This document shows, in pieces, positions 2-64,000 of a stretch of DNA of 64,000 nt (positions within the stretch are counted from its first letter, which is position 1; each line of letters begins with the position of its first letter). A model generated the notes under the pieces. That model was not told where the DNA came from. It saw nothing but the letters and a program-made list of their open reading frames with translations, and did not search any database. This DNA comes from Saprospiraceae bacterium. GTDB taxonomy: Bacteria > Bacteroidota > Bacteroidia > Chitinophagales > Saprospiraceae. The position numbers and the translations under genes are program-made. Location of the stretch: the NCBI GenBank assembly GCA_031411275.1, contig JANOAU010000052.1, positions 18,524-82,523 on the forward strand, written 5' to 3'.

Positions 2-3000
2 GGATTGAATATAACGACTTTTTATAAAACAAGCCTCGACCCCGTTCAAATAGCTTTGAATGACCAAATTTTTAGTTTGTTGGATAAGGGTGTCTCATTA
101 ATTAGTTTTTATGGGCACTCTGCATCTTCTACGCTTGATTTTGATATCAACAACCCCGATAATATGCACAATAAGGGGAAATACCCTTTGTTTATCGCTT
201 TAGGTTGTTCTGCTGGCAATTGTCATCAACAATCAAAAGGCGTTGCAGAAAATTTTCTATTTTATAAGGACAAAGGTATGAGTGTGTTTGCGGGAACAAC
301 GGGTTCGTCTTTTCTTAATTCGCTCAATCGTTTTGCGAACGTTTATTATAGTACAATGGGTAATGCGCGCTATGGAGAAAGTATAGGGGATATTACAAAA
401 GCAACTTTAAGTCAATTTGGTCAAACGACAGTCCAAAATGATTTAGGACTCAAATCTGCCGTGGAGGAGTTTCAAATAACGGGTGACCCTGCATTGCGTA
501 TCTTTGCTGCACCTGGCCCCGATTATGTGCCTGATGCGACCTCTATAAAGTTTAACCCTTCGGTACTCACTGCTCAGTTGGATAGTTTTGCTATAACCTT
601 CAATGTCAACAATATCGGTTATGCCATCAAAGATTCAATGACTGTTTTGATGCGTCAACAATTGCCTAATAATTCGTTTGTCGAATTAGCCAAAAAGCGC
701 ATACCGACCCCTCAGTATCAAAGCACTTATACGTGGTCAGTGCCGATGTCTAAAGAGGTAGCGGGTTCAAATCGCCTTCATATATTTGTTGACTCGGATA
801 ATAGTATCAATGAATTGCCTTCTCCAAGTGCTAAAACGAACAATGAATTAGTAGCCTCAACGGGTGAAAAAGGCGTCCCTTTTTATATCCTCGATAATAA
901 TGTGAGACCTGTTTACCCTGCCGAGTTTGCAATTGTCAATAAAACGCCCATTATTTTGAAGGCTTCTACGTCTAATGCCTTAGCAAAGCTGCAAAACTAT
1001 ATCATTGAAATAGATACAACGGCAAATTTTAACAGCCCTTTGAAAAAACGCACAACTATCAATCAATTAGGCGGCATACTGAAATGGCAACCTGATATGA
1101 ATTGGACAGATAACACTGTATATTATTGGCGGACGGCGGCCGATAGCACAGCGGGTGTCGGTTATGCGTGGCAGAATTCTTCATTTATTTATTTAAAAGA
1201 CGGAAGTGACGGGTGGAATCAGTCGCATTATTATCAGTGGTTGGGGAATCAGTTTACAACTCTAAAGGTGAATGATTTCGATAGGAAGTTTGATTTTAGC
1301 GATGATGTTAAGTCTATTGATTTACGTTATAGTTTAAATTCTTCAGTTAATTCGCCCCAATTTTATATCAATAATGCACAATGGGATAGAAATTTTGGGT
1401 ATCCTTCTGATGTAGGATTATTTGTCGTAGTATTTGATAAATCAACTGGAACTGCTTGGCTTCAACAAGACACACTTTCAAGATATGGTGCTAATCCAAG
1501 TAATAGGAGAACTCATTTCTATATTTTTAAACCAGATTCAGATGATTCTTTTATAGGGAGGAAGGGATTGATTGACTTTATTGGCAAAATTCCAGATCAC
1601 AACTCTATTTTAGTATTTACAGTACAACAAAGTGCTACAGCAAATTATAGAACGGATTTGTGGGCATCTGATTCTGTTACTTTTGGCACAAATATTTTCA
1701 AAGCTTTTGAAAGTTATGGTGCTCAAAAAGTGAGAGGGCTGAATGGTACTTTGCCTTATGCTTTTACCTTTCAAAAAGGGGTAGGTGTATTGGGTGAAAA
1801 AGTGGGTACAGACTGGGGAACGGGCGCACCACTTTCTTTCCAAACTGTGGGTGCATGGTACGAAGGCAAAATGGAATCTAAAATAATCGGTCCTGTAAAA
1901 GAATGGGAATCATTAGAGTTGAAATATGTTGTAGAGCAAACAATACCTAAAAGCGATTCTTTAGCTTTTGATGTCATTGGTTTATCTCCAGACAAATTAA
2001 AAGACACGGTTCTTTTAGCTAATCAAACAAGTAACTCTATATCGTTAAGTAATATCAATGCTAAGCAATACCCATTCCTAAAACTTCGATTTAATGGATA
2101 CGATAACAACAAACGTACTGTACCCCAACTCAATTATTGGCGTGTATTATATAAAGGTATGACGGAGTTAGCTGTTAATCCAAATGCCAAGTTTACGATG
2201 TATAAAGACACATTGCAACAAGGAGATCCATTTAAATTAGAAGTCAATGTGGAGAATATCAGTGATGTAGATGCCGATAGTGTTTTAGTCAAATGGACAA
2301 TTCGAAATGAAGCGAATGTGGAAATAAATACGGCTACTAAATATGCCCCCCTCAGTAAAAATGGGAATTTTGTGACAAATTTGACGCGCTCAACAAAAGA
2401 TTTAGGCGGTAAACATCAAATTTCATTTGAAGTGAACCCAAATATGGCACAACCTGAACAGTTCACATTTAATAATTATTTGCAAACCAATTTTTATGTT
2501 GAAAAAGATAAACGCAATCCGCTTCTTGATGTCATGTTCGATGGCATTAGGATTATGAATAACGACATTGTTTCCCCTAAACCCTTGATAATAGTTGAGT
2601 TACGTGATGAAAATAAATTTTTGGCACTTAATGATACAGCTTTGTTCAAACTGTATGTTCAAATACCATCGGGTGCGAAACAACAGATTTTTTTCAACGA
2701 CGCATCCCTAAAATTTAATCCTGCGACAATTTCAGCAACAGGCGTTAATAAAGCAACTATCGAATACCGACCTGTTTTTACTGCTGATGGCACGTATCAA
2801 TTGATTGTAAAAGCCAAAGACGTTTCTGGTAATACGTCGGGGGATATGGATTATAGTATTGCATTTCAAGTTATTACGAAATCGTCTATTTCTAATGTCC
2901 TGAATTATCCGAATCCTTTTTCTACTCGCACACAGTTTGTCTATACTTTAACAGGTGAAACACCACCCGCCTATTTTAAAATTCAAATCATGACTGTCTC

Positions 3001-3285: not shown

Positions 3286-4347
3286 TTATTTCCACTTTCG
3301 ATAAACAAACCGCAAAGGCAATGTAAAAAAATAAGGTCGCCTACCAAAGAATTGATATTTTAAGGATATGAACCAAAATTTTAAAGAAGTCATTAAAGGA
3401 AAATCAAAACGAGGCATCACCAAAATTTGCTCTAACAAATAAGCCCGCATCCTGGTTTTATTTAAAAAAATTAGATTCATTTCCCAAATTTTGTCATAAT
3501 CATTAATATTCAGCGTTTGCGGGGTTAATTCATTGATTCTATTTTTTGATAAACCCAGTGCTTTTAACAACGTTAAAATTAACACCAAACGTTCTGCATC
3601 CGCTTCTTTTTCGTTACTTGATTTAGTGGCATCGTGTACCCGATAATAAGCCAAAACCTGTTCAGTTGATTTAACAGCACTCAAACCATAAGCCAAAAGA
3701 TAGCGATACCACAAATCCAAATCCATGCAATAATGAAATCGTTTGTCCACCCCCCTCAGTATTTTTAACTTTTCGAGTCGAAAAAAAAGCGATGGTTGCG
3801 CCATTAATCTACCAAAATTCATCGTCGCTTCCACATCTTCTAAACAGTGCATACCATACTTCTCTGGCAATAAAATCTGCTGTCTTATGACTTGTAGTTT
3901 TCCCATTAAAACGTTTGTATGTTTATCTTTTGAAAAATGTGCAGCGATTTCCCACAAGACATTTGGTGCCAATAAATCATCGCTATTGAGCCAATTAAAA
4001 ACATCGCCTGTTGCCTGTGCGAGTCCTTTATTTATAGCATCTGATTGTCCTTCATCCGTTTCACTAACCCAGTAATGAATCCATTTTTCGTATTTTTTGA
4101 CAATTGCAACAGTTTCATCTCTACTACCACCATCGATAATGATGTATTCTAAGTTTGGGTAATCTTGAAGTAGTACTGAGCGAATCGTTTCCTCTATGAA
4201 TTGTCCTTGATTGAATGACGGCGTAATGATGCTGATTTTTGGCAAATTTTGAGACATATACTGAGGGAGGGGCATTTCCGATGATTCTGTCCAAGGATAG
4301 CCTGATTTTCCATTGTGAGCGAGAGGTAATCGATTTAAAATATCCAT
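3286..4347 (-). CDS. Family 2 glycosyltransferase
   Basis: The N-terminal motif ISIITPSFNQGQFIEETIRSVLLQDYPNLEYIIIDGGSRDET and a downstream DxD-like NSDD are classic for the GT2 fold. Confidence 0.85.
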   Translation of the reverse strand: MDILNRLPLAHNGKSGYPWTESSEMPLPQYMSQNLPKISIITPSFNQGQFIEETIRSVLLQDYPNLEYIIIDGGSRDETVAIVKKYEKWIHYWVSETDEGQSDAINKGLAQATGDVFNWLNSDDLLAPNVLWEIAAHFSKDKHTNVLMGKLQVIRQQILLPEKYGMHCLEDVEATMNFGRLMAQPSLFFRLEKLKILRGVDKRFHYCMDLDLWYRYLLAYGLSAVKSTEQVLAYYRVHDATKSSNEKEADAERLVLILTLLKALGLSKNRINELTPQTLNINDYDKIWEMNLIFLNKTRMRAYLLEQILVMPRFDFPLMTSLKFWFISLKYQFFGRRPYFFTLPLRFVYRKWK

Positions 4348-5901: not shown

Positions 5902-7017
5902 TCACGTTTTATATTTTATGGCATATTTTAAGAAATAAGATTCAAAATAAAGATAACAGAACTTTGCCAATAGCCATGTCAGAGAAAAAGAAAATACATA
6001 ATATACCCAACACCAACTTTGAGTTACAAATGGCGATAACCAGTGCCAAGTTAAGACAATCGAAAGCGTATGCCACACATACAAGCCATAAGAGATTTTA
6101 CCCCCCTCAGTAAACCACAGCAAACGGCTGATTTTGAAAATAGAATGTTTCGAAAAATTTTGCTCTAAAATAACACAAGCAAAAAGAGTTTTGTGAATTG
6201 TATTCATCAATACCGATATAGTGAGGGGGGTATCAGTAAATAATCGTGGTATGACAAAAGGATATAAACCCAATGAAATATATAAAATTAAAATCCAATG
6301 GCGGGGCAAATCTATCCACTTTTGCAAGAAGTCTGCCTTCTTTTTACATAAAAAAGCAGATAAACAACCTATTGACAATTCACTACATGCCGAAAAAGTA
6401 TGGTAATATTGCATATTATACGCTGAATTCATACATTTGAATAAAAAAGAAAAAATAAGAATCAATGAAAATACTGAACCATAAAAACGACTTGGCAAAA
6501 AATACAGAAGCAATGGGAAAACTAAATAAAACTGTTCTTCTATCGAAATAGACCACAAAATAATGAGTGTATAAGAAAAGCGAGAAGGCTCGAATGGAAC
6601 TATGAATTGAAAGTTTGCTGTAAAAGAGGCATAATGCCAAAAATTGTCATTCAATGTTTTGAATTCAGTATAAGGGACGAAAGTGGGCAGCATAAATCCG
6701 ACTGCCAAAGCCAAATAGTAAAGTGGAAAAATGCGTAATACGCGGCGGATATAAAAGTTCAGAACATTGATTTGTCCTTGTTTTTCCTGCTCTGTCAAAA
6801 ACAAATAAGTAATGAGGAAACCACTAAGTACAAAGAAGAATGCCACCCCCCATCGGGTTTCTGCAATCAAAGCAGTGCATATTTTGTAGGCAAATGTACC
6901 GTTGATATAAGGCAAGCCAAAAAGCCCTTTGGAATGTGCAAAAAATACACCGATAAAAGCCCAAAACCTCAAACCGTCGAGATTCGGAAAATATATTTTA
7001 GAGGTTGTCGCAGTCAT
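5902..7017 (-). CDS. Acyltransferase family 3 membrane protein (O-acetyltransferase, OafA-like)
   Basis: Polytopic membrane protein with WGVAFFFVLSGFLITYLFL, FYIRRVLRIFPLYY and LWSISIEEQFYL motifs. I prefer the start at Met15 (MTATTSK, 7017) over the track start at 7059. Confidence 0.8.
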   Translation of the reverse strand: MTATTSKIYFPNLDGLRFWAFIGVFFAHSKGLFGLPYINGTFAYKICTALIAETRWGVAFFFVLSGFLITYLFLTEQEKQGQINVLNFYIRRVLRIFPLYYLALAVGFMLPTFVPYTEFKTLNDNFWHYASFTANFQFIVPFEPSRFSYTLIILWSISIEEQFYLVFPLLLYFLPSRFYGSVFSLILIFSFLFKCMNSAYNMQYYHTFSACSELSIGCLSAFLCKKKADFLQKWIDLPRHWILILYISLGLYPFVIPRLFTDTPLTISVLMNTIHKTLFACVILEQNFSKHSIFKISRLLWFTEGGKISYGLYVWHTLSIVLTWHWLSPFVTQSWCWVYYVFSFSLTWLLAKFCYLYFESYFLKYAIKYKT

Positions 7018-8287
7018 TTTGATTAGAAGTATGGGCTGATGTTTGTGCGTATGTATCAAAGAACTGCCATTCCAAAATTGGAAATATCAAACCCGGATTG
7101 TCCTTGATATCATACCGTTTAAAATAAGATAAGTGGGTGCGTTCAGTTTCGATATTAAAGGCAATCACAGGGTCATAGATCTTTGTAAAAGTCTCAATAT
7201 TGTGCTTTGAAATGAGAGGGCGGATGTAATATTCACCGTTATTTAGGAGAAGATGCGGTATTTTACAAACCCAAATAATGTTTTCTCCAATGCTGAATAC
7301 ATCTTTTGTATGGCTATCAATTTGATAAGTCCTGAATAAAACCATCCCATCTTTAAGTAGGTCAAAACCTATTTTTGTTATTTCTACATCGGCAAAAGTG
7401 GTGGTATGGAAATGGATGAAAACAGCTTCTTGATTGGTAAATTTTGTTGTTAAATTACCAGTTTTATCCCGAATTTCTATTTTTTCAAGCCGCATTTTGG
7501 TCGTTGTATCAATATTATTGACCCACACTGCTTCACCATTATTACTGGCATCATATTCATAAAGAGCAACCGCTTTTTGAATATCACCTTCAAAAATCAT
7601 CTTTCCTTTATCTAAAATAACGCCTTTATGACATAACTGCCTTATGGCACCCATATTATGACTCACAAACAAAACGGTGCGCCCACTTTTACTCACCTCA
7701 TCCATTTTTCCCAAACATTTCTTCTGAAAATCAGCATCACCGACTGCCAGCACTTCATCAATCACCAATATTTCAGGTTCTAAATGTGCGGCAACAGCAA
7801 AAGCCAACCGCAACTGCATACCACTCGAATAATGCTTCAAAGGCGTATCAATAAACTGTTCAACACCACTGAATGCGACGATTTCATCAAATTTTTGAGC
7901 AATTTCTGCACGACGTAAGCCCAAAATCGAACCGTTCATAAATACATTTTCACGCCCGGTTAGTTCAGAGTGGAAACCTGTGCCTACTTCTAAAAGGCTG
8001 GCGATGCGACCCCTCAGTATGATCTTACCTTTTGTTGGTGGCGTAATGCGGCTTAGGATTTTTAACAAGGTACTTTTACCTGCACCATTTCTACCAATAA
8101 TACCGATACTTTCGCCCGCTTGAACATCAAAACTGACATCGTTTAAAGCCCAAAAATCAGACCTCGGAGTATGCTCACCTTTAGTTTTAAAAAAATCAGA
8201 AACTGAATCACGTAAACTTAAATATTGTTGTTTTTGTCCGATTTTATACTGTTTTGATATATTTCTGACCTCAATAATAGGTTTCAT
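6998..8287 (-). CDS. Polysaccharide/O-antigen ABC exporter ATPase (Wzt/TagH-like) with a C-terminal extension
   Basis: Walker A GRNGAGKST, signature SSGMQLRLAFA and Walker B ILVIDEVLAVGD are present, followed by a ~180-aa C-terminal beta-rich domain like the Wzt glycan-binding domain. A Wzm-type permease lies nearby. Confidence 0.85.
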   Translation of the reverse strand: MKPIIEVRNISKQYKIGQKQQYLSLRDSVSDFFKTKGEHTPRSDFWALNDVSFDVQAGESIGIIGRNGAGKSTLLKILSRITPPTKGKIILRGRIASLLEVGTGFHSELTGRENVFMNGSILGLRRAEIAQKFDEIVAFSGVEQFIDTPLKHYSSGMQLRLAFAVAAHLEPEILVIDEVLAVGDADFQKKCLGKMDEVSKSGRTVLFVSHNMGAIRQLCHKGVILDKGKMIFEGDIQKAVALYEYDASNNGEAVWVNNIDTTTKMRLEKIEIRDKTGNLTTKFTNQEAVFIHFHTTTFADVEITKIGFDLLKDGMVLFRTYQIDSHTKDVFSIGENIIWVCKIPHLLLNNGEYYIRPLISKHNIETFTKIYDPVIAFNIETERTHLSYFKRYDIKDNPGLIFPILEWQFFDTYAQTSAHTSNQNDCDNL

Positions 8288-9611: not shown

Positions 9612-10433
9612 TCAAGCTAAATCTGCGAAATATGCCTCTGTTTTTCTAAAAACATACACGCCTACGAAAAGTAAAAGGGTAGCTATTAAAAATTGAGTAC
9701 CCACTGTGAACCAATCAATCGCCTCCTCTCTGAAAACCGAGCGCATCAAATCTATTGCCCCTGCAACTGGATTAAGGCGCATAATCCATTGAACAAATCC
9801 ATTGTCAAAGGCTTTTGTCGAGTACAAAACAGGATTGAGAAACAATAAAAATTGAATCATAAACGGCAAAGCATACTGAAAATCACGGTATTTGACATTC
9901 AAACTGGCTAATAAGGTGCCGAGACCAAAAGTCGTGATAACAGTAAGCAAAATACTGAGGGGGGTATAAAGAAGCAATTTCCAAAGCTCAAAAGGCAATT
10001 GATAATAAATCAGTAACCCTATAAATACGATAAAAGCAAAGATAAAATCAAATAGTGCCGTCAAAACCGATGATAAAGGGATGATAAGACGTGGAAAATA
10101 TATTTTCTTAATGATGTTGGCATTAGCTACCATACTGGAAGCGGCATTGAGCAAACCGTTTGAAAAAATATTCCAAATCATCAAGCCAGAAAAAGCAAAG
10201 ATAGGATAGGGTAGCCCATCTGAACCCACTTTCAAACTACGACTAAAAATGAACGTAAAAAGCAACATCATACTGAGGGGTTGCACCACTGCCCACAAAA
10301 TACCAAGTGTCGCCTGTTTATACCGAACTTTGATGTCTCGCCAAGTAAAAAAATAAAAAAGCTCTCGATATTGCCACAATTCGCGCCCACCAAGTGTAAA
10401 TTTGCCTTTATTTTCGATTATAAATTCCTGCAT
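9612..10433 (-). CDS. ABC-2 type polysaccharide export permease (Wzm/TagG-like)
   Basis: FTWRDIKVRYKQATLGILWAVVQPL is the hallmark N-terminal motif of ABC-2 exporters. It has six TM segments and sits in the same cluster as the Wzt-like ATPase (a Wzy-like gene lies between them). Confidence 0.85.
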   Translation of the reverse strand: MQEFIIENKGKFTLGGRELWQYRELFYFFTWRDIKVRYKQATLGILWAVVQPLSMMLLFTFIFSRSLKVGSDGLPYPIFAFSGLMIWNIFSNGLLNAASSMVANANIIKKIYFPRLIIPLSSVLTALFDFIFAFIVFIGLLIYYQLPFELWKLLLYTPLSILLTVITTFGLGTLLASLNVKYRDFQYALPFMIQFLLFLNPVLYSTKAFDNGFVQWIMRLNPVAGAIDLMRSVFREEAIDWFTVGTQFLIATLLLFVGVYVFRKTEAYFADLA

Positions 10434-10485: not shown

Positions 10486-11454
10486 TTGATGATGTTTGAC
10501 CTTCCCTTAGTGTCTGTACTGATGCCACTGTTTAATAAACAGGCTTATGTAGTTGAAGCGATAACATCTGTTTTACATCAGACTTACCCGAATATCGAAC
10601 TCATTATTATTGACGATGGGTCAACTGACAGCAGTTTTGAAATAGCCCATCAATTTGTCTCCGATAAAGTACACGTATTTAAGCAAGAAAATCGGGGCGT
10701 TTCATCGGCTCGAAATGTGGCTTTCGAAAAGTCAAAAGGCGATTTTATTCAATATTTAGATGCCGATGATGTTTTAGAAAGCCGAAAAATAGAGGAACAA
10801 GTAAAAATACTGAGGGGGCATAATGATACGACCTTAGCAACAGCTAAACGGTTTTATTTTAAAAAACAACTTGTTGACGCTTGGCAATTAAACACTATGC
10901 CGATTTTAGAAAAAAATTATACCGATATGTCTGCTTTTTTGATTGACGAAGTGTCAAGCAGCGCATTTGTGCATTCGTGGTTGATACCGCGTACGCTCAT
11001 TTCAAAAGCGGGGAAGTGGCATGAATTCATGACCATTTTTGAGGATAGAGATTTTTATTTACGCCTTGTCTTGTCAGCAAAAACAATTAGTTATTGCCCT
11101 CAAGCCATTTGTTATTGTCGTTTTCCAATAGATGACCATCAGTTAAAACGCAGTAAAAAGTCTCAATTTAAGACAGTTTTGGACTATTTTTCAAGGTTTG
11201 AGCATCAATTACTATCTGAAAATCAAGACTTACACCGTCAATCATATTCAGCTTTAGCTTGTTTATACAAAAAACTGCTCAATATTACCGATGATAAAAA
11301 AACGATTGATGAATTGAAAAACCGTTCTCAAAGGCTTGGTTTAGTACCCGATTGTGGTAACAGTCCATTTATTCAATTTTGTAAAAAAATGATTGGGGTA
11401 AAAAATACTTTTGGGCTTATTTATTTGAAATCGAAATATATTGACACACCCTAA
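10486..11454 (+). CDS. Family 2 glycosyltransferase
   Basis: VSVLMPLFNKQAYVVEAITSVLHQTYPNIELIIIDDGSTDSS ... YLDADD is the GT2 signature. It is divergently transcribed from wzm. Confidence 0.85.
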   Translation: MMMFDLPLVSVLMPLFNKQAYVVEAITSVLHQTYPNIELIIIDDGSTDSSFEIAHQFVSDKVHVFKQENRGVSSARNVAFEKSKGDFIQYLDADDVLESRKIEEQVKILRGHNDTTLATAKRFYFKKQLVDAWQLNTMPILEKNYTDMSAFLIDEVSSSAFVHSWLIPRTLISKAGKWHEFMTIFEDRDFYLRLVLSAKTISYCPQAICYCRFPIDDHQLKRSKKSQFKTVLDYFSRFEHQLLSENQDLHRQSYSALACLYKKLLNITDDKKTIDELKNRSQRLGLVPDCGNSPFIQFCKKMIGVKNTFGLIYLKSKYIDTP

Positions 11455-15072: not shown

Positions 15073-15150
15073 GAAATTATACGTGATAGAAAGAGGATTG
15101 CTATTTCAAAAAAACAGTTTCTAAGTCAAAACCTAAGAAATACTGAGGGG

Positions 15151-16569: not shown

Positions 16570-16613
16570 TGTTTTGTCTTTTTGGGGTAAATATACTGAG
16601 GGGGGTTGTGATT

Positions 16614-24116: not shown

Positions 24117-24149
24117 GTACCTTTATACTGAGGGGGGTAAATTATCATT

Positions 24150-38401: not shown

Positions 38402-38466
38402 TTTTTCTTTCAATACTGAGGGGGTAACTTGGTGTAGAAAAATCACAAATTTGCTCATTTTCGCAA

Positions 38467-51107: not shown

Positions 51108-51662
51108 ATGAATCAGAAAATTAAACCCTTATGGGATAAATTGGAACAAGACCGTTTGTCCTTGTTCCAATTTTTAGAAAAACAGACCCCCTCAGTATTG
51201 AACCAAAAACCTGCCCCTGACAAGTGGTCAGTCAATCAAAATATATTTCATCTCATCGGTGCGGAATCTGCTTCGTTGGCTTATATGAAGAAAAAGTTGA
51301 GCTTTGGCACAGATAATATACCACAAGCAGGTTTCAAAAGTCATTGGCGAAGGTTTATGCTGCGCGCTGCTTTTGCTTTACCTTTAAAATTCAAAGCACC
51401 GCCACAGTTAGAGAAAATACCAGAAGATTTGAATTTTGAAGAATTGAAAAAACGTTGGACAACGTTACGTGCAGAATATTATGATTTTTTAAAGAATATG
51501 CCCGATACGCTGGTCACAGCCGAACTCTGGCGGCATCAACTTGCAGGGAAAATGACCATTTTGCAAATGATTGACTTTTTTGGAGACCATACGAATCGGC
51601 ATAAAAGTCAAATCGAAAAAACTTTGGTAATGGTGAATAATTTAATGGAGAATGGTGAATAA
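51108..51662 (+). CDS. DinB-family (DinB_2) four-helix-bundle protein
   Basis: KWSVNQNIFHLIGAE ... FFGDHTNRHKSQI shows the His triad spacing typical of the DinB superfamily. Confidence 0.55.
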   Translation: MNQKIKPLWDKLEQDRLSLFQFLEKQTPSVLNQKPAPDKWSVNQNIFHLIGAESASLAYMKKKLSFGTDNIPQAGFKSHWRRFMLRAAFALPLKFKAPPQLEKIPEDLNFEELKKRWTTLRAEYYDFLKNMPDTLVTAELWRHQLAGKMTILQMIDFFGDHTNRHKSQIEKTLVMVNNLMENGE

Positions 51663-52434: not shown

Positions 52435-52516
52435 ACTCACCCCTCAGTAAAAAGCACAAAAAAGGGATAAAATGCCACCATTTTACCCCTTTTTTTATAT
52501 CTGAAATGAATAAATT

Positions 52517-54154
52517 TTAAACTGAAACGGCCTCACCATACATCTCCTCGCGTAAGGCTTTGATGCGTGGGCTGTGGACATATTCCCCATAAGTCATCAA
52601 TTGGTCAATCATACCGTTTGGCGTAATTTCGATGATGCGATTGCCGACAGTGTCCAGTATTTGATAGTCATGGCTGGTAAAAATCATATTGCCTGGGAAG
52701 TCTTTCATCCCGTTGTTTAGGGCAGTGATACTTTCAAGGTCAAGGTGATTGGTGGGTTCATCCAAAATAGTGAAGTTAGGATTCGCCAACATCGCTTTTG
52801 ACATCATACAGCGCACTTTTTCACCCCCTGACAAAACGCTGGCATTTTTGAATACCTCTTCACCACTGAACAACATACGTCCTAAGAAACCACGAATAAA
52901 CGACTCGTCTTTTTCTTTTGAAAACTGACGCAGCCAATCAATGAGATTCATATCGTTTGTGCCTGTAAAGTATTTTGTATTGTCGTTGGGCAAATACTGA
53001 GGGGATATGGTTTGCCCGTATGAATACTTGCCTGTAAAGTTTTTATCTTCTCCCGCAATGATATTGAAAAAAGCTGTTGGTACATTGGCATTACGGCAAA
53101 GAATAGCAATTTTCTCACCTTTATTCATTCTAAAACTGATGTTTTGGAACAAATATTCACCATTTTCGGCAACTTTTGACAGATTTTCACATTCAAAAAT
53201 AACATCCCCTGGGTCACGTTCAGGTTTGAAATTGATGAAAGGGTAGCGGCGACTGGAGGGGCGCATATCTTCCAAATTCAGTTTATCCAATGCTTTTTTA
53301 CGGCTGGTCGCTTGTTTCGATTTAGAGGCATTAGCAGAGAAACGAGCAATAAATTCCATCATTTCAGCGCGTTTTTGCTCTACTTTCTTATTTTTATCTG
53401 CCATTTGGCGCGACAACAATTGACTTGTTTCGTACCAGAAAGTGTAGTTACCTGTAAACAAACGGATTTTGCCGAAGTCAACGTCCACAACGTGCGTACA
53501 CACCATGTCCAAGAAGTGACGGTCGTGGGAAACGACAATGACTAAGTTTTGGTAATCGGCGAGAAAGTCACAAAGCCATTCTGTTGTTTCCGCATCCAAG
53601 TCATTCGTCGGTTCGTCCATCAACAAAACGTCAGGGTTGCCGAAAAGGGCTTGTGCTAAAAGGACTTTGATTTTGTCTTTGCCGCTCAACTCACGCACCA
53701 AAGAGTCGTGTAAAGATTCTTTGATGCCCAAATTGGACAGCAATTCAGCTGCATCAGACTCTGCCATCCAGCCGTTCATCTCGCCAAATTCGGCTTCGAG
53801 ATCGGCGGCGTGCATGGATTCTGCTTCCGTTGCGTCGGGATTGTCATAAATGGCGTTTTTCTCAATCATGATGTCATATAGGCGTTTATGCCCCATCATC
53901 ACGGTATCAATGACCTTGACATCATCAAAAGCGAAGTGATTTTGAGACAAAATCGCCATACGGTTGCCAGGTTCGATACTGACTTCGCCACGATTAGGCT
54001 CAATTTCGCCTGATAATATTTTAATGAAAGTAGATTTGCCTGCGCCATTCGCACCGATGACACCATAGCAATTACCTTTTGTGAATTTGAGGTTGACCTC
54101 ATCAAATAGAATGCGTTTGCCGAATTGCAACGCTACATTATTGACCGTAAGCAT
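52517..54154 (-). CDS. ABC-F family ATPase (two tandem ABC domains, no TMD)
   Basis: Two Walker A sites (GANGAGKST and a degenerate second), two LSGG signatures (LSGKDKIKV, LSGGEKVR) and an inter-domain charged linker. The start is set at Met20 (54154). Confidence 0.8.
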   Translation of the reverse strand: MLTVNNVALQFGKRILFDEVNLKFTKGNCYGVIGANGAGKSTFIKILSGEIEPNRGEVSIEPGNRMAILSQNHFAFDDVKVIDTVMMGHKRLYDIMIEKNAIYDNPDATEAESMHAADLEAEFGEMNGWMAESDAAELLSNLGIKESLHDSLVRELSGKDKIKVLLAQALFGNPDVLLMDEPTNDLDAETTEWLCDFLADYQNLVIVVSHDRHFLDMVCTHVVDVDFGKIRLFTGNYTFWYETSQLLSRQMADKNKKVEQKRAEMMEFIARFSANASKSKQATSRKKALDKLNLEDMRPSSRRYPFINFKPERDPGDVIFECENLSKVAENGEYLFQNISFRMNKGEKIAILCRNANVPTAFFNIIAGEDKNFTGKYSYGQTISPQYLPNDNTKYFTGTNDMNLIDWLRQFSKEKDESFIRGFLGRMLFSGEEVFKNASVLSGGEKVRCMMSKAMLANPNFTILDEPTNHLDLESITALNNGMKDFPGNMIFTSHDYQILDTVGNRIIEITPNGMIDQLMTYGEYVHSPRIKALREEMYGEAVSV

Positions 54155-54204: not shown

Positions 54205-54298
54205 TAGGCATATTTCATAAAAAATGACACTGAATACTGAGGGGTCTCTAACAGGAGATTAACCGTTTTCAAAATCCTATAAATCATTTTTTGCGCCG

Positions 54299-54380: not shown

Positions 54381-55070
54381 TCAATACCCGCTATTGCCGA
54401 AGCAATACGCTAAGGTCAAACCACCGAACATATACCAATCGTTCTTTTTAGGATTCCCTGTTTTACTTACACCGTCAAGGTAGTCTGAAAACGTGAGGCG
54501 TGTACCCCATTCTATTCCGACAGAAACGGCTTCTCCAAATTGTACTTTAAAACCTACACCCATCGGGAAGGCGGGTACAATACTCGAAGCACCGTCTTCT
54601 GGAAAAGGATAAGGTCGTGTATCAGGTGGCGCAACCGGCGAACCGTCGTTTGAGGCAATGCCCAATCCTGCAAAAATATAAGGATTAAACAATGTACTAC
54701 CGCCTTGAAAATTGTTTTCATTACTTTGACCTAAAAAATTGAATTCACCAACAACCGAAAATTCACGAACGGTTGATTTGAATGTAAAGCCACGATAACG
54801 GGTTATGGGGTCAGATGAGCGCAAATCAGAACCAGTGAGCTTGCCTTGAATAAAGCTGCCCCGAATAGTGATAAAACGATTGGGCGTATAGCGTAACAAT
54901 GCGCCAAAAGCAGGTTGTGTTTCTTGCCAACGCAGCGTGCCGTCGGCAAGGTCTCCTTGATAGTTACATGCGCCAACGAATAGTCCTGCTTCAAATTGGG
55001 CGTTACTGAGGGGTAGGCAAAGGACGAAAGCAAGGGCTGTTAATTTTATTTTTTTCAATAAGTTTAGCAT
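54381..55070 (-). CDS. Small outer-membrane beta-barrel protein (DUF6089/OmpW-like style)
   Basis: Signal peptide, alternating beta-strand pattern, and a C-terminal aromatic ending (GNSGY). Confidence 0.45.
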   Translation of the reverse strand: MLNLLKKIKLTALAFVLCLPLSNAQFEAGLFVGACNYQGDLADGTLRWQETQPAFGALLRYTPNRFITIRGSFIQGKLTGSDLRSSDPITRYRGFTFKSTVREFSVVGEFNFLGQSNENNFQGGSTLFNPYIFAGLGIASNDGSPVAPPDTRPYPFPEDGASSIVPAFPMGVGFKVQFGEAVSVGIEWGTRLTFSDYLDGVSKTGNPKKNDWYMFGGLTLAYCFGNSGY

Positions 55071-56378: not shown

Positions 56379-57782
56379 TTAAATATTGATGTCGCCTACC
56401 ATTGTTTCAGGGCGCAACACTTCATCAAATTTTTCAGAAGTGATATATCCCAAATCCAAAGCCGCTTCTTTCAAAGTTGTGCCTTCTTTATGTGCTTTTT
56501 GAGCAATTTCAGCCGATTTGTAGTAACCAATGTGTGGATTTAAAGCCGTTACAAGCATCAATGAGTTTGAAACGTGCTTATTGATATTATCATACAACGG
56601 TTCGATGCCGACAGCACATTTGTCATTGAAGGCCACACAAACATCCCCAATCAGACGTGCAGAATGTATGAAATTGTAAATTATCATAGGTTTAAATACA
56701 TTGAGTTCAAAATGACCAGATGCCCCACCAATGTTTATCGCTACGTCATTGCCTAAAACTTGAGCCGCTACCATCGTCATCGCTTCGCATTGTGTAGGAT
56801 TCACTTTGCCCGGCATAATCGAAGACCCTGGTTCATTGTCAGGAATATACAACTCGCCAATACCTGCACGCGGCCCAGAAGCCAACAGACGAATATCGTT
56901 GGCAATTTTCATCAAGGAGCAAGCGACTGTTTTTAACGCCCCATGTGCTTCTACAATAGCATCGTGAGCCGCTAAGGCTTCAAACTTATTTTCAGCTGTA
57001 AAAAACGGTAAGCCCGTCAAATGGGCAATATGAGCCGCCACATTCTCTGAATACTGAGGGGGGGTATTGATGCCTGTACCAACAGCCGTGCCGCCCAAAG
57101 CTAATTCAGATAGATGTGCCAGGGTGTTGTTAATGGCTCTCAAACCATGCGTCAATTGCGACGCATAACCAGAAAATTCTTGTCCAACCGTCAAAGGTGT
57201 GGCATCCATCAAGTGCGTTCGACCAATTTTGACGACATGTTTAAATGCCACCGCCTTTGCTTGCAGCGTATCGCGCAGTTTTTCGATGCCTGGTATCGTT
57301 GTTTCCATCAAAATTTTATACGCTGCAATATGCATAGCCGTTGGAAAAGTATCGTTAGACGATTGCGATTTGTTGACATCATCATTCGGATTGACATATT
57401 TTTTTTCGTCCAAGAGATGACCTCCATTCAACACATGCGCACGGTAAGCAATGACTTCATTACAATTCATATTTGACTGCGTTCCCGAACCTGTTTGCCA
57501 AACGACGAGCGGAAATTGGTCGTCCAACTCCCCCATCAGTATTTCGTCGCATACCTGCCCGATGAGATCACATTTATCTTTTGGTAAAATACCGGCATCG
57601 AAATTGGTTAAAGCGGCTGCTTTTTTGAGGTAAGCAAAGGCTTTGATGATTTCCTTCGGCATCTTATTGATGTCTTGAGCAATGGGAAAATTCATAACAG
57701 AGCGTTGCGTTTGGGCACCCCAATACACATTGGCAGGGACTTCTACCTTGCCCATGGTGTCTTTTTCTATCCTATATTGCAT
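56379..57782 (-). CDS. fumC: Class II fumarate hydratase
   Basis: [16 protein letters not shown] is the fumarate lyase signature. The protein is 467 aa and conserved along its full length. Confidence 0.95.
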
Positions 57783-58401: not shown

Positions 58402-59889
58402 CTATGTTGTCACCTTCTCTGTTTTAAAAAAAACAAAATCTGCTTTTTTCGATTCACACATCGGACAAACAAAAGCATCGGGTAATGCCTCAAATAGTAC
58501 CCCCTCAGTAATGCCCTGCGTGGGTTCGCCAAAACGAGGGTCATATACCGTCCAACAATGACCACATTGATAGACAAGGGGTTGTGTTCCTTTTTCTTGT
58601 TTTTTTGGTTTTTGAATGACGGCAACTCTTGAAGCGGCTTTATCATGAGTAAGTTGGGCATAGTATTTTTTACTCAAATTCAGCAATTCGTCTGCTAAAC
58701 GCCATTTAGGAACGCCTAATTGATGTGTTTTACGCTTGCGGCTGTGTGGATTAAAGTCTTCGGCATAAAAAATATCGAACACCCCAAACCAACCAAACGG
58801 GTCAAATGACCATTTACCTATACTGAAAAAAGGCTCTCGCCGAATGATGACCGACCCAAAAACCTCTGATTTATGCCTTGTTTTGATGGCAAACAGCAGT
58901 CCAAAAGTCCGTGCATCCATTTTGTCAAATTGCTTAAATAAGTATTGTTTCACCTTAAAACCAACGGGTGCATCGTCTTCTGTTTGCCAATTGAGTTCGA
59001 GGGCCGCATGACGGACATTGATGCCATATTTGCCCAGCAGTTTCTCCCAGATATAGCGGTCTTGCGGCAAAACACCTTTGATTATCAGCGAACGCCAAGT
59101 CGTGACGCACAGCGCACCGACCTTTGTTTCTGCGCATAAGGCACACATTTCCTTTAAAAATAAGGTAGGAAATTGCTCATTTCGGCGATAAATACCAATC
59201 CATGGCTTTGCACCGTATAGGTTGACACCTTCGTAATAAGGCATCACAAAACGTGGAATAATCAACTCTTTTTCAGGTGCGCGCATTACCAACCCCTCAG
59301 TAAAATGCAAATAATGTGGCATTTCGAGAAAGTCTAAATTCTCCATTTCCAACAACTCATACTCTGCTTTTTGAGCGAAATTGGCTAAATCCTGCGTATA
59401 GATTAAATTCGGAAAACGTTCAATCCGATGTGTTTTAGGAAAGCGAATGAAACAAAACCAAAAATGGGGTACATCGGACGAAATGAAATTGAGATGCCCC
59501 GTAAAAAAAGGCGCATACGCCTGAAGGGCATCACAAATATTGATTTTTAACTTGGGTTTGTAGTCAAACAAATCCAATACGTCTTGATACACACCTTCTG
59601 ATAACCAGCCATCTGAATGTGTTTGAAAAATCTCTGCCGTTGAATAAGTCGTTAAAATATTGGGAAATTCATCTGATTCACTTTCAATGTCAACGCCCAA
59701 TTCTGTCATTTTTTTATATACAAAAGCTAATTCACGATTATGAACCTTCAAAATCAGTTGTTGTCTGCCGCCAAAGCTGATATTGTTAATACCTGCTTTT
59801 TGCGCTATTTCTAAGACAGACAATAACCATGAAGGCGAGACGATGCCACCTTTTAGGTTTATTTTCAATGTTTTATAGCTATTGAACAT
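58402..59889 (-). CDS. Rubredoxin-domain protein with a large N-terminal region of uncertain (possibly nitrite/sulfite-reductase-like) fold
   Basis: The C-terminal YQCGHCWTVYDPRFGEP ... FVCPMCES is a rubredoxin CxxC...CxxC. The N-terminal LKINLKGGIVSPSWLLSVLEIAQKAG...FGGRQQLIL resembles NiR/SiR ferredoxin-like half-domains. The gene is next to the nitrate reductase. Confidence 0.5.
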   Translation of the reverse strand: MFNSYKTLKINLKGGIVSPSWLLSVLEIAQKAGINNISFGGRQQLILKVHNRELAFVYKKMTELGVDIESESDEFPNILTTYSTAEIFQTHSDGWLSEGVYQDVLDLFDYKPKLKINICDALQAYAPFFTGHLNFISSDVPHFWFCFIRFPKTHRIERFPNLIYTQDLANFAQKAEYELLEMENLDFLEMPHYLHFTEGLVMRAPEKELIIPRFVMPYYEGVNLYGAKPWIGIYRRNEQFPTLFLKEMCALCAETKVGALCVTTWRSLIIKGVLPQDRYIWEKLLGKYGINVRHAALELNWQTEDDAPVGFKVKQYLFKQFDKMDARTFGLLFAIKTRHKSEVFGSVIIRREPFFSIGKWSFDPFGWFGVFDIFYAEDFNPHSRKRKTHQLGVPKWRLADELLNLSKKYYAQLTHDKAASRVAVIQKPKKQEKGTQPLVYQCGHCWTVYDPRFGEPTQGITEGVLFEALPDAFVCPMCESKKADFVFFKTEKVTT

Positions 59890-60594: not shown

Positions 60595-63500
60595 TCAAGC
60601 AACAACTGCATCCACTAATGCTAAATTTTTCTCCAAAATTGACCGCACCTCTGCCCGACAACTGCCACAACCGCTTCCTGCACCTGTTGCATCGCACAAT
60701 TTTTGAAAATCAGTACAGCCATTATTGATATGTTTTTCCAAATTACCTGAACCCACGCCATTGCACGAGCAAATGATTTTGCCCAGAATAGGCTCTGCTT
60801 TTTTGCCGCTTCGCAACAATTCCAAGCGTTTTTCAGACAATTCAATGCCGTTCTGAATCCAGTTTTTGAATTCTAAAAACTCGGATTTGTCACCCATCAG
60901 AATTGCACCGACCAGTCGGTCATTCTGAATGAGGCATTTTTTGTAAAATCTTTTCGCTTTGTCAATAAAGATAACTTCTTCAAAATCAAGGTTTTCCGTC
61001 GGTGTTTCGATGCGTCCCAATGAACACAATTCCAAGCCTTCCATTTTCAAAATATTCATGGATAACGAGCCTTTATAAGGCGTTGCCGCATCACCTGCTA
61101 AGAAACGGGCAGCAACAGCTGCTTGTTCTTCGGCGGCAGCAGTGATGCCCCACATCTCGCCGTGCCATTCGGCGATTTCGCCAAAGGCAAATACTGAGGG
61201 GTCCGATGTTTGCAAATAATCATTGACCAAAACGCCGCGGTTGCACGATAAACCAGCCTCTCGAGCTAACTCGACATTCGGTATCGTGCCAACGGCGTAC
61301 AAAAGAGCATCACATTCTATTCTTCGACCGCTGCGTAAGCGGATAGCTTCAATTTTATCTTTGCCAAAAAACGTTTGAATTTGGTCATTGAAAAAAGCAT
61401 CAATGCCCCTTTCAAGGATTTCTTCGCGCAGCAAAGCACTTCCTAAATCATCTAATTGTCTGTCCATAAACCGCGAAGTACGCTGCACAATGGAGACTTT
61501 TACGCCAATTTCGCTTAAAGAACCCGCCATTTCAATCCCTAACAACCCACCACCTACGATAACAATGTGTTTAGGGTTTTGAGTAACATCATCTCCCATC
61601 TGGGGCTGGAGTACATCTGCTCCCCTTTGGGGCGGGGGGGATAGTTGATTCAGCAATTTATCTGCATCGTATTTTGTCCGCATCGTAAAAATGCCTTCAA
61701 GATGCTGGGGTACGTCTTTGGGCATATTCGGTCGGCTGCCCATGCCCAATAGCAAAATATCGTAATGGTGTACCGTTCCGTTTTCGTCTTCAAACGATTT
61801 AGAGGGTAGGGTCAATTTTTTCATCCCCACGCCTTTGTGGACTTTGACGTTTTTTTCAAATAAGTCCTTTTCGGTCAATTTCTGTAATTGTTCCCATGTT
61901 TGTGTTCCGCTTACATAATCTGGCAACATGACGCGGTTATAAAAAGGGTGTATTTCACGGCTAAACACATGAATTTCGTCCGTTTCGTTGAGTTTTCGAT
62001 AGTTTTCTATGAAACCATAGGCAGCGGCACCCGCACCGATGAGGACAATTTTTCTTTTTGGTGAAACGATTTTTGCCACATCAACGGCTGAAAACTTGAA
62101 ATCAGGTTCTTTTGAACGCGGGTCAACCAGATTATTTGTGACGTTATTGGCGCGTGCAAAATCCTTTCCATTGATTTTCCCCCAGTGCATCGGCAGAAAA
62201 ACAACACCTTCACGTATGTCTTCTGTAATGCGGGCTTGAGCGCGAACAACGCCACGACTGTTACCAATCTCAACTGTTTCACCTTCTAAAATGCCTCGTT
62301 CTAAAGCATCTTTGGGATGGATTTCAACAAAAACTTCGGCAATATGCTGATTGAGTTTATTGACTTTTCCCGTCCGACTCATCGTATGCCATTGATCACG
62401 GATACGCCCTGTCGTTAAAATAAGTGGATACTGAGGGGTCGTTTTTTCAGATAAAATTGTGTCTTCACACCCATGTATTTGTGCTTTCTTACTGGGTGTA
62501 TAAAATATTTTGTCTTCAAAAAGACGTTTTGTGCCTATTTGGGTGACATTGTTCTGAATGTCTTTATTTAGATTAAAGTTGGTATTGGTTTTGTCTGAAT
62601 TGTTTTTAATAAAGTTCTCGTTTTGTTCTTTAATATTTATTCCTTCTTTCTTATTTTTAATATTGCTTAAACTATTTTCAATATTAATTAAGCTAATTCC
62701 ATTTAATTTTAAATCATTTTTACTATTGTTTAAACTATTTTTATTCTTTTCAAAATCATTTTCAAAATTGTTTAAATCATTTTTATTTTGATTAAAATTA
62801 CCATTAGAATTGTTTAATAAACATAAAGCATCTTGTTCTGTAAAAGGCCATTGAACAGATGTATGTTTTTGTAAAATACTATAATTTAAACCTGAAATAT
62901 CAATATTTGTACCGCGTGTCAAAGCCACATGTTCTAAAAAGACATCTTCCGTTTTTGGATAATTAAACTTCTTTTCAAAACCCATTTTGTGTGCAAAACG
63001 AATAAGAATATCGGTATCGGGCATGGCTTCGCCCGGTGCTTCCGTGATTTTGTGCAAGTACGTGATGCGGCGTTCTGAATTGGTCATCGTGCCTTCTTTT
63101 TCTGTCCAAGTGGCGGCGGGCAGCACAACATCAGCGTATTCAAGCGTTTCTGGACGGTTTGACATATCTTGAACAACAACGAATTTGGCGTTTTTTAAAG
63201 CCTTTTCAGCCATTCGCACATCGGGCAAACTGAGTAAGGGGTTGGTACACATAATCCAAATCGCTTTCATGCGTCCATCGGCGAGGGCTTCAAACATTTC
63301 AGTTGCAGTCAATCCCGGTTTAGGTGCAATGGTTTTTCCACCCCAAAACGCTTGCACTTCGCGACGGTCATTTTCATCTAAAAGGTTGCGGTGTGCGGGT
63401 AACATATTGGATAAACCGCCGACTTCGCGCCCACCCATCGCATTGGGTTGACCAGTGAGCGAGAAGGGACCCGCACCCGCTCGACCGATTTGACCCGTTA

Positions 63501-64000
63501 TTAAGTGGAGATTGATTAAACTAAGGTTTTTAGAAACGCCCATAACACTCTGATTCAGACCCATCGCCCACATCGAAATAAACCCTTTTGAGCGACCAAT
63601 CCAAGAGGCTGCTAATTGTACATCAGCGATTTCGATGCCACAGATGTCTGCCGCTTCTTCAATGGTTTTTGAAAAAGCGACAGATTTGAGTTTTTCGTAC
63701 CCCTCAGTATATTGCGAAATAAAATCATTGTCAATCCATTGATTTTCAATCAATATACGAGCAATAGCGTTAAAAAGAGTAATGTCAGTAGCTGGTTTTA
63801 TAGGAAGGTGGAGGTCTGAACTACGCGCCGAATCTGTTTTACGTGGATCAACAGTAATGATTTTTACGTGCGGATTAGCAGCCTTATGTGCTTCAACTCG
63901 CCGCCAAATAATCGGGTGGCACCAAGCTGGATTAGCTCCTGCAACGAAAATACAATCCGATAATTCAATATCATCATAACAAACTGGCACGCTGTCTTCA
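60595..64000 (-). CDS. nasA: Assimilatory nitrate reductase fusion, N-terminus beyond the window. It combines a molybdopterin oxidoreductase (NasA/NarB-like), an FAD/NAD(P)H oxidoreductase (NirB N-terminal-like) and a BFD-like [2Fe-2S] domain.
   Basis: The frame is open to the window end. Mo-bisMGD motifs (SMWAMGLNQS, LTGQPNAMGGREVG, ILTTGRIRDQWHT); then KIVLIGAGAAAYGF and IVIVGGGLLGIEMA Rossmann motifs; the C-terminal CSCNGV...CGSC is BFD-like. Confidence 0.8.
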   Translation of the reverse strand, partial: EDSVPVCYDDIELSDCIFVAGANPAWCHPIIWRRVEAHKAANPHVKIITVDPRKTDSARSSDLHLPIKPATDITLFNAIARILIENQWIDNDFISQYTEGYEKLKSVAFSKTIEEAADICGIEIADVQLAASWIGRSKGFISMWAMGLNQSVMGVSKNLSLINLHLITGQIGRAGAGPFSLTGQPNAMGGREVGGLSNMLPAHRNLLDENDRREVQAFWGGKTIAPKPGLTATEMFEALADGRMKAIWIMCTNPLLSLPDVRMAEKALKNAKFVVVQDMSNRPETLEYADVVLPAATWTEKEGTMTNSERRITYLHKITEAPGEAMPDTDILIRFAHKMGFEKKFNYPKTEDVFLEHVALTRGTNIDISGLNYSILQKHTSVQWPFTEQDALCLLNNSNGNFNQNKNDLNNFENDFEKNKNSLNNSKNDLKLNGISLINIENSLSNIKNKKEGINIKEQNENFIKNNSDKTNTNFNLNKDIQNNVTQIGTKRLFEDKIFYTPSKKAQIHGCEDTILSEKTTPQYPLILTTGRIRDQWHTMSRTGKVNKLNQHIAEVFVEIHPKDALERGILEGETVEIGNSRGVVRAQARITEDIREGVVFLPMHWGKINGKDFARANNVTNNLVDPRSKEPDFKFSAVDVAKIVSPKRKIVLIGAGAAAYGFIENYRKLNETDEIHVFSREIHPFYNRVMLPDYVSGTQTWEQLQKLTEKDLFEKNVKVHKGVGMKKLTLPSKSFEDENGTVHHYDILLLGMGSRPNMPKDVPQHLEGIFTMRTKYDADKLLNQLSPPPQRGADVLQPQMGDDVTQNPKHIVIVGGGLLGIEMAGSLSEIGVKVSIVQRTSRFMDRQLDDLGSALLREEILERGIDAFFNDQIQTFFGKDKIEAIRLRSGRRIECDALLYAVGTIPNVELAREAGLSCNRGVLVNDYLQTSDPSVFAFGEIAEWHGEMWGITAAAEEQAAVAARFLAGDAATPYKGSLSMNILKMEGLELCSLGRIETPTENLDFEEVIFIDKAKRFYKKCLIQNDRLVGAILMGDKSEFLEFKNWIQNGIELSEKRLELLRSGKKAEPILGKIICSCNGVGSGNLEKHINNGCTDFQKLCDATGAGSGCGSCRAEVRSILEKNLALVDAVVA
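62540..62820 (-). other. In-frame, very AT-rich Asn/Lys-rich low-complexity insertion (~90 aa) inside the nitrate reductase
   Basis: It encodes NNSNGNFNQNKNDLNNFENDFEKNKNSLNNSKNDLKLNGISLINIENSLSNIKNKKEGINIKEQNENFIKNNSDKTNTNFNLNKDIQNNVTQ, between the conserved VQWPF and GTKRLF segments. Confidence 0.85.

Follow-up and report, generated by a model that had tools for sequence, protein, structure and literature searches.

Genome-saturating DNA uptake signals are listed in a 2025 survey only for Neisseriaceae and Pasteurellaceae, two proteobacterial families. In Neisseriaceae the DNA uptake sequence (DUS) is a 10-12-mer, AT-GCCGTCTGAA with its dialects, which is bound by the minor pilin ComP, and in Pasteurellaceae the uptake signal sequence (USS) occurs as the Hin-type AAGTGCGGT and the Apl-type ACAAGCGGT. 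Other short words are abundant in bacterial genomes for other reasons. The highly iterated palindrome HIP1 of cyanobacteria (GCGATCGC) is eight bases long and is linked to methyltransferase sites. The Chi sites of RecBCD/AddAB, the FtsK orienting polar sequences (KOPS, GGGNAGGG) and the SpoIIIE recognition sequences (SRS, GAGAAGGG) are short, over-represented, G-rich chromosomal words that are strongly co-oriented with replication. Here we analyzed a stretch of 64,000 nucleotides from Saprospiraceae bacterium (GenBank assembly GCA_031411275.1, contig JANOAU010000052.1, positions 18,524 to 82,523 of the forward strand), hereafter called the window, in which the 10-mer TACTGAGGGG recurs on both strands at a density of about one per 1.4 kb. 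On balance, and with somewhat more belief than disbelief, we read its extended form, (A/T)TACTGAGGGG(T/G), as a putative DNA uptake signal or a functional analogue of one in a clade of uncultured Saprospiraceae-like Bacteroidota.

An exact search of the window for the 9-mer ACTGAGGGG and its complement CCCCTCAGT returned 46 copies, 25 on the (+) strand and 21 on the (-) strand. T preceded 45 of the 46, the sole exception being AACTGAGGGG at 47359-47368. These figures had been reported in an earlier note on this DNA and were reproduced. The start coordinates given there were also exact, except for three on the (+) strand that were off by one (15793, 33964 and 38414 in place of 15794, 33965 and 38415). 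In 100 dinucleotide shuffles of the window such a word was found 0.13 times on average and never more than twice. Markov models of orders 1-4, trained on sequence that included the copies themselves, predicted 0.03-0.35 copies of the 10-mer, so the count is far from the Markov-level abundance that would have spoken against the note's claim. When a k-mer census of the window was made, the word and its sub-words were the only entries that were not A/T-rich.

The information profile over +/-30 nt was confined to 12 positions, with A31/T13/G2 at position -2 and T27/G18/A1 at position +10, in agreement with the extended consensus that the note had proposed. The G-run at the 3' end of the word varies from 4 to 7 nt. 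The word was sharply bounded in sequence space as well. The window contained 45 exact 10-mers and 10 one-mismatch copies (1.2 expected), and two-mismatch 10-mers were at background (20 vs 21 expected). Since no conservation was found outside the 12-mer, the copies are not fragments of one longer repeat, an outcome that the note had named as fatal to its own claim. The word resembles DUS/USS-type signals in being 9-12 nt long, hundreds-fold enriched and present about once per kb, and its density was similar in 8 related loci. It is asymmetric and not a palindrome of the HIP1 type. Repeats of the REP (repetitive extragenic palindrome), MITE (miniature inverted-repeat transposable element) or Correia type have units of tens to hundreds of bp and are mostly intergenic, whereas here the unit is 12 nt and 37 of the 46 copies are genic.

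All five stop-free reading frames were used, on both strands, as the note had stated, and the only unused sense frame was the one that reads TAC-TGA. Sense and antisense copies stood at 15:22 in the window and at 74:119 in pooled DNA of the clade (460 kb). Because this equals the 2:3 ratio of allowed frames, there is no preference for a transcription strand and a role at the RNA level was excluded; an Rfam scan of the window detected only two tRNAs. To spell the word, the genes draw on the least used codons of the genome, namely AGG (9% of Arg), GGG (13% of Gly) and CTG/CTC (8-9% of Leu).

The gene for fumarase C, fumC, made it possible to compare codons between motif-bearing and motif-free lineages. 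At site 1 the outgroups encode DEIL[E/A]G[K/Q]L, whereas in the codon alignment the motif lineages encode DEILRGEL via ATA CTG AGG GGG, and the replacement of E/A by R was confined to motif lineages. The window itself has a decayed copy at this site, TACTGATGGG at 57532..57541 (-), in which ATG yields DEILMGEL. The perfect orthologue DEILRGEL was present in the loci of its three closest relatives (L003, L004 and L005) and in about 100 other clade fumC variants. At site 2 the peptide NTPPQYSE is written ACC CCC CCT CAG TAT in motif lineages and ACG CCA CCC CAA TAT in the motif-free L006, which is the kind of comparison with a relative lacking the word that the note had suggested. The protein is variable at both sites. 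The use of every stop-free frame, the choice of the rarest synonymous codons, the respelling in fumC and the E/A to R replacement show directly that the constraint acts on the DNA, overriding the protein, as the note had argued. At the protein level, NT[LM][AEK]HLSE replaces the motif-encoded NTPPQYSE in five fumC homologues of the clade, P0021, P0031, P0038, P0099 and P0112.

The copies are conserved, evenly spaced and without polarity. All six alignable window copies (a small sample, of 5 independent sites) were conserved, compared with 20.8% of other 10-mers, at 78-92% nucleotide identity. The spacing of copies was more even than random, with a coefficient of variation of 0.64 vs 0.98 (P=0.0014). 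The pooled major-strand fraction of 177 single copies on 15 contigs was 0.627, and 0.609 was expected at p=0.5. A Chi-like strand skew of 75% was rejected (P=5e-5), and at a KOPS-like 90% none of the simulations gave a value as low as that observed. The unbiased strand use across the 15 contigs rules out a polar motif of the Chi/KOPS type, and the replichore-type skew that the note had put forward as a counter-indication was thus absent.

The distribution of the word was evaluated in 80 Bacteroidota loci fetched via fumarase C. The closest species-representative genomes were metagenome-assembled genomes (MAGs) that bear the label Saprospiraceae bacterium, and their fumarase C was 96%, 89% and 88% identical. 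Only in the three closest Saprospiraceae MAGs (L003-L005) was the word present, with 7, 11 and 13 copies in 12-19 kb; it was absent from about 75 other Bacteroidota loci, save one chance copy. About 100 of the 120 best-scoring fumC homologues listed encoded the motif-embedded EILRG, at identities down to ~86%. Five more clade contigs from ENA, JGI and Logan (L232, L233, L235, L236 and L237) had 5-23 copies each, and L234 (86% identity) had none. These five contigs show no synteny to the window. The same holds for the motif-rich L004 and L005 around fumC, so the word is a clade-level trait. It saturates a populous clade of uncultured Saprospiraceae-like genomes, whose source is metagenomes, the glacier-fed-stream MAG series GFS_* among them. 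The note's statement that no counterpart had been described in Bacteroidota held against the full-text literature (subscription journals were outside its scope), in which the word in both orientations matched eukaryotic primers only and nothing relevant was found on uptake sequences in Bacteroidetes or Saprospiraceae.

A one-base variant of the word, TACTGGGGGG (extended form ATACTGGGGGGG(G)[CA]G), was found 7 times in 5.3 kb (615-5281), on both strands, in L063 (MAG JBJOPA010000217.1, a river-water Bacteroidota bin). The window's word was absent from this contig, and the variant occupies the same fumC codons as the window's word. The two words may be dialects of one system, reminiscent of those of DUS and USS.

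Other abundant words were detected in the comparison loci, among them words dispersed on two strands in Cytophagales. In Hymenobacter ginkgonis (L069), GGGGGTAGG occurred 14 times in 21 kb vs 0.4 expected. In H. nivis and H. coccineus (L065/L066), GGGGCCCTG occurred 16-17 times vs 1.3 expected, and in an uncultured Persicitalea (L013) AAAGTACCT occurred 9 times. Bacteroidota may harbour further lineages that are saturated with words of their own. In L059 (JBPBPH010000060.1, titled as a Janthinobacterium lividum MAG), the palindrome GCCCTAGGGC, which includes the usually avoided CTAG, was present at ~13 dispersed sites in 21 kb in the manner of HIP1. As this contig has a G+C content of 64% and a fumarase 83% identical to that of the window, the organism label may be a binning error. 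In Runella defluvii and R. limosa (L008:866-2514 and L010), GGTTTCTCAAAACC was part of a longer repeat in alternating orientation, with ~13 copies within 1.7 kb. The abundant words of these two loci, of L025/L027 and of L029 turned out to be repeats in clusters or tandem arrays and were discarded as dispersed words.

A metagenome scan for CCCCTCAGTA-N(0-30)-TACTGAGGGG detected at least 120 loci with opposed pairs of the word. Among the matches listed, 63 of these were motif-rich contigs, with 0.15-1.0 additional copies per kb and a G+C of 0.26-0.41, mostly 0.33-0.41. The 63 contigs contained 76 distinct pairs, built as an A-run, a stem extended by (G)GTA, a loop and a T-run, and the loop was 6 nt long in 37 of the 76. 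This is the textbook architecture of bidirectional intrinsic terminators, and the pairs in motif-rich contigs are predicted to act as such. The variant word of L063 behaved similarly: a perfect hairpin (-51.7 kcal/mol), with T-runs on the flanks, arises from its copies at 3547 and 3581. About half of DUS and USS copies are located in terminators, and inverted pairs almost always are (10.1101/2025.10.24.684340). A second class of pairs had a semi-conserved 17-18-nt spacer, CCTGCTCATTTTGCAGC, and may represent a small family of repeats with the word as its core. Pairs with this spacer or its complement were seen in L083, L115, L135, L139, L160 and others, and the spacer has a small internal hairpin.

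Most viral contigs with an opposed pair had incidental lone hairpins, and when viral contigs were scanned for the L063 variant in opposed pairs, one uninformative lone hairpin resulted. Two viral contigs were motif-rich. The first (L223/L208, IMGVR_UViG_3300037309_000133) encodes small and large terminase subunits, a head protease, a Mu Gp36-like adaptor and an anti-repressor. This Mu-like phage contig contained 22 exact copies in 21.6 kb, located in structural genes and on both strands, and no copies were found in its relatives at 63-65% terminase identity. The other (L238, IMGVR_UViG_3300048691_000223) encodes an integrase and contained 16 copies in 19.5 kb. Temperate phages of Pasteurellaceae, including Mu-like and BcepMu-like ones, reach the USS density of the host, whereas lytic and newly arrived ones do not (Szafranski et al. 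2019, PMC6776037). Motif-dense phage was therefore dropped as evidence against an uptake drive, because the Pasteurellaceae phages show the expected pattern. Both IMG/VR contigs, L223 and L238, are temperate and could be assigned to the clade by the word alone. A terminal heptamer array, (GAAGTAT/GAGGTAT)n, was present at 9-170 of L223.

When the word was compared with the known systems, the likeness to DUS was extensive. Both are asymmetric words of 10-12 nt that recur roughly once per kb on either strand without polarity, both use any stop-free frame at permissive protein positions, and in both the copies are highly conserved while the flanks diverge. Opposed pairs with the look of intrinsic terminators are a further point in common, and the one-base variant in a single contig, L063, may correspond to the lineage-specific dialects of DUS. 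Unlike DUS, the word has an unrelated sequence and belongs to another phylum, the evidence for its depletion in accessory genes is mixed, and its uptake bias is only putative. With USS the word shares a comparable density, an A/T preference beside the core, costs in codons and amino acids, and temperate phages, including Mu-like ones, at host level (PMC6776037), and the L063 variant may be a counterpart of the two related dialects of USS in related lineages. It differs from USS in its unrelated sequence, its variable 3' G-run and, again, a putative role in uptake. Since sequence and phylum differ, membership in the DUS and USS families proper was excluded. Like HIP1, the word is hyper-abundant and short, occurs in coding and non-coding DNA without strand polarity and has no proven function. 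Unlike the cyanobacterial octamer it is asymmetric with 10-12 specified bases, and HIP1 is, to our knowledge, not known for terminator pairs or dialect-like variants. Both KOPS and SRS resemble the GAGGGG part of the word. Unlike those words and Chi, the clade word is unbiased with respect to strand, and its enrichment is orders of magnitude higher.

The note had likened the behaviour of the word to that of DUS/USS or HIP1, and the clade restriction, the variant word, the opposed-pair terminators and the temperate-phage loading point the same way. Judged from sequence, nearly every testable hallmark of DUS and USS appears to be shared by the word, with the dialect and core-versus-accessory results being mixed or from a single contig. 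Constraint at the DNA level, absence of polarity, conservation of copies, restriction to a clade, a variant word, use in terminators and phage loading were all observed here, and DNA uptake may be the selective step that unites them. In such a process, a surface or periplasmic uptake component would prefer double-stranded DNA with the 10-12-mer, and word-bearing fragments would enter the cell more frequently and be recombined into the chromosome. Biased uptake and homologous recombination (a molecular drive, whether or not conspecific DNA is also selected for) would then spread copies and repair decayed ones, leading to about one copy per recombination-tract length. Either strand and any stop-free frame would serve, provided that the protein can accommodate the copy. 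Where two copies oppose each other in a spacer, they would be co-opted as the G+C-rich stems of bidirectional terminators, and temperate phages resident in these chromosomes would be loaded by the same process.

Natural transformation has been documented in Bacteroidota, and in Riemerella it requires ComEC, DprA, ComF, RecA and four phylum-specific proteins without assigned function, RA0C_RS04920, RS04915, RS02645 and RS09020, with no type IV pilus (PMC8459023). As the described Bacteroidota machinery lacks a type IV pilus, a receptor of the ComP type is unlikely and a new type of receptor would be expected. For an uptake signal, both the sequence and the phylum are new, and the receptor or machinery is probably new as well. 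We lean, if modestly, towards the view that uptake signals arose independently a third time, in a phylum with pilus-free machinery and with a receptor of a new type.

Several observations weigh against an uptake signal. Every one of the sequence-level hallmarks would also follow from a process, of whatever kind, that favours the word throughout the DNA resident in the cells. A search by regular expressions for prepilin leaders and PilB/T Walker motifs among ~409 clade open reading frames found none, but at a coverage of ~10% of one genome this is uninformative. No opposed pairs were present within the window, where the intergenic copies lie beside terminator hairpins and not inside them; the word as a terminator stem in the window was ruled out on this ground, the spacer copies adjoining other hairpins. 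The evidence for a variant word is from a single 5.3-kb contig, L063. Furthermore, DUS and USS are reportedly rarer in accessory or recently acquired genes (PMC2397512), and the evidence from the clade is mixed. The toxin and selfish genes of the window had 0 copies vs 3.55 expected (P=0.03), a weak signal, and this depletion was not reproduced in the defence island of L236, which had 8 copies in 8.1 kb, a core-like density.

The selfish and toxin genes of the window at 16614-18197, 21736-22902, 24150-25169 and 60157-60585 coincide with its longest motif-free stretches, and the types represented are AAA-ATPase_like with PDDEXK_9, AAA_14/DUF4143, HipA-like and PIN. Two decayed copies, 22865 and 23070, were noted with these stretches. 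The apparent defence island of L236 (positions 1420-9532 of ENA scaffold YUYA23-1...scaffold_95) adjoins fumC and contains an integrase fragment, an McrA-like HNH protein, HamA (Hachiman) with a helicase, and DUF559/MTES_1575.

The word might instead be read inside the cell. A nuclease, repair or defence system could treat it as a mark of self, as RecBCD/AddAB do with Chi, and degrade DNA without the word or leave it unrepaired, so that selection would load the chromosome, the islands and the phages that must survive in these hosts. The phage contigs and the defence island at chromosomal density, the even spacing and the strong conservation would all be accounted for. We regard such a mark as distinctly unlikely, since strand polarity is zero and the Chi-like 75% skew was rejected (P=5e-5), and since a 10-12-mer enriched >300-fold is unlike Chi, whose known sites are 5-8 nt with modest enrichment. 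Both motif-rich viral contigs are temperate, as a USS-type drive predicts, whereas a defence tag would load lytic phages too. A new kind of genome-wide, orientation-blind tag of self-identity, of which the chromosome, islands and resident phages would need about one copy per kb in order to persist, is unlikely in our judgement. We are also quite doubtful about a bias of modification or mismatch correction, or some other intracellular function, that converts near-matches into the word without any role in uptake, in analogy to GCGATCGC. The extreme enrichment in coding and non-coding DNA on both strands, the presence of the word in prophages and islands, and the abundant words of other Bacteroidota loci, including the true palindrome GCCCTAGGGC in L059, are consistent with it. 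The word, however, is asymmetric with 10-12 specified bases, and recognition sites of methyltransferases or Vsr-type enzymes are shorter than that. No methyltransferase or Vsr-like gene was found within the window, and the terminator pairs together with the temperate-phage pattern match the DUS/USS precedents specifically.

Evener spacing than chance and independence of orientation could also be expected of an array of binding sites for a chromosome-organising protein (of the nucleoid-associated, condensin-loading or roadblock type), with weak selection on each copy. There would be no reason for such an array to load the structural genes of a phage whose relatives have none, and about one site per 1.4 kb, at a cost in rare codons and amino acids, would be hard to maintain by selection on each site. 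We know of no precedent for chromosome-organising sites at such density and specificity, and consider this explanation improbable. Far less credible still are remnants or target sites of mobile elements (MITE- or REP-like) and an assembly or adapter artefact. The semi-conserved 17-18-nt spacer CCTGCTCATTTTGCAGC in some opposed pairs could be a small repeat family. Nevertheless, the information falls to background right outside the 12-mer, 80% of copies lie in frame within genes, and the codon alignment indicated that the fumC copies arose by substitution with no indels. The information profile and this substitution-only origin effectively refute a longer repeat or mobile element. As to an artefact, the word recurs in independent NCBI, ENA, JGI and Logan assemblies.

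The DNA of the window is that of an ordinary bacterial chromosome, and its G+C content is 37%. It encodes a polysaccharide gene cluster, a TonB-dependent receptor, a C25 peptidase-like protein, an HscA-like Hsp70, DUF2126/ATP-grasp/transglutaminase genes, menaquinone synthesis genes, ABC-F, TatC, fumarase C and nitrate- and nitrite-reductase-like genes, as well as two tRNAs and several toxin-type genes. No gene related to DNA uptake, restriction or methylation was identified among them. The exact proteins of the window are recorded only in SRA-derived metagenome assemblies, and the DUF2126 matches were Logan contigs identical to the window. Altogether 37 copies of the word are located within 25 unrelated genes (the note had estimated about 30), 15 in sense and 22 in antisense orientation, and 9 copies are intergenic. 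The spacer copies are mostly just 3' of stop codons, beside other hairpins.

From the left end of the window, copies at 708..717 (-) and 2348..2357 (-) are antisense in the C25 peptidase-like gene (5-3235, +). Sense copies were located in a GT2 gene (3752..3761 (-), ILRG frame), an acyltransferase-3 gene (6103..6112 (-), TEG frame) and a Wzt-type ABC ATPase gene (8010..8019 (-), ILRG), and two antisense copies read as PLS in an ABC-2 permease gene (9953..9962 (+) and 10271..10280 (+)). A GT2 gene has a sense copy at 10808..10817 (+) (ILRG), a GT4 gene an antisense copy at 13552..13561 (-) (PSV), and a PD40-repeat gene a sense copy at 14481..14490 (+) (TEG). The copy at 15141..15150 (+) is intergenic between convergent genes, with a 24-bp perfect hairpin directly 3' of it. 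Two antisense copies in an M24 peptidase-like gene (15793..15802 (+) and 16594..16603 (+)) and two sense copies in the TonB-dependent receptor gene (20819..20828 (-) and 21509..21518 (-)) follow. Between convergent genes, 10 nt past the stop of a nucleoside hydrolase gene, lies the copy at 24126..24135 (+). The HscA-like Hsp70 gene contains two sense copies, at 26090..26099 (+) (TEG according to the earlier note) and 27295..27304 (+) (VLRG), and the ThuA gene an antisense copy at 28982..28991 (-).

Further along, the intergenic copy at 30219..30228 (+) begins 13 nt past a stop codon. The DUF2126 gene has an antisense copy at 32327..32336 (-), and 14 nt past its stop is the intergenic copy at 33964..33973 (+), followed by a small hairpin and an A/T run. 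Two more intergenic copies were found between convergent genes (37748..37757 (+)) and between divergent genes (38414..38423 (+)), the latter just past a tandem array. This array, (AATTAGG)x6.6 at 38356-38401, is a perfect heptamer repeat in the divergent promoter region between the genes at 37778-38350 (-) and 38644-39207 (+); similar 7-nt arrays were seen as (TACCGAC)n in L029 and (AGAGTAG)n in L025/L027. Antisense copies are present in a flavoprotein gene (39022..39031 (-)) and in two places in genes without assigned function (39716..39725 (+) and 44856..44865 (+)). The copy at 41062..41071 (-) overlaps the stop codon and 3' end of a rhodanese-AAA gene (41066-42184, -), and copies at 42489..42498 (-) and 42805..42814 (-) are sense in menaquinone biosynthesis genes, the second in the ILRG frame. 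GT4 genes account for a sense copy at 46481..46490 (-) (ILRG) and for antisense copies at 46971..46980 (+), 47226..47235 (+) and 47359..47368 (+), the last being the one without the preceding T.

Two antisense copies, at 48315..48324 (-) and 51188..51197 (-), are in a histidine kinase gene and a DinB-family gene. The intergenic copy at 52440..52449 (-), between convergent genes, adjoins the T-tail of a predicted terminator with a 17-bp stem (52458-52495). An antisense copy in the ABC-F gene (52995..53004 (+)) and another in the DUF6089 gene (55004..55013 (+)) are exact in L003, and the intergenic copy at 54235..54244 (+) lies within an indel relative to L003. The antisense copy in fumarase C at 57052..57061 (+), which encodes NTPPQYSE through synonymous codon choice, is kept in L003, L004 and L005. 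Sense copies at 58501..58510 (-) and 59293..59302 (-) were found in a nitrite-reductase-like/rubredoxin gene, and the nitrate-reductase-like genes have antisense copies at 61192..61201 (+) and 62429..62438 (+) and a sense copy at 63700..63709 (-). In addition to the decayed fumC copy, one-mismatch copies were detected at 4259..4268 (+) (TACTGAGGGA), 6219 (+), 22865 (-), 23070 (-), 23863 (+), 26507 (+), 49483 (+) and 50514 (+). The six near-misses named in the note are real, and its list was short of three, those at 23863, 50514 and 57532.

If the word is indeed an uptake signal, biased DNA uptake of this form evolved more than twice, and natural transformation with self-preference would occur in abundant, uncultured freshwater Saprospiraceae-like bacteria. 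The 12-mer would then be a bait for the DNA receptor of the Bacteroidota uptake machinery, including the four essential proteins of Riemerella to which no function has been assigned, and the word added to DNA constructs might make these organisms transformable. It also provides a sharp taxonomic and phage-host marker for metagenome binning and host assignment. If the word does not serve uptake, the upkeep of a 10-12-mer roughly once per kb, in islands and phages as well as in the chromosome, would suggest a new intracellular recognition system.

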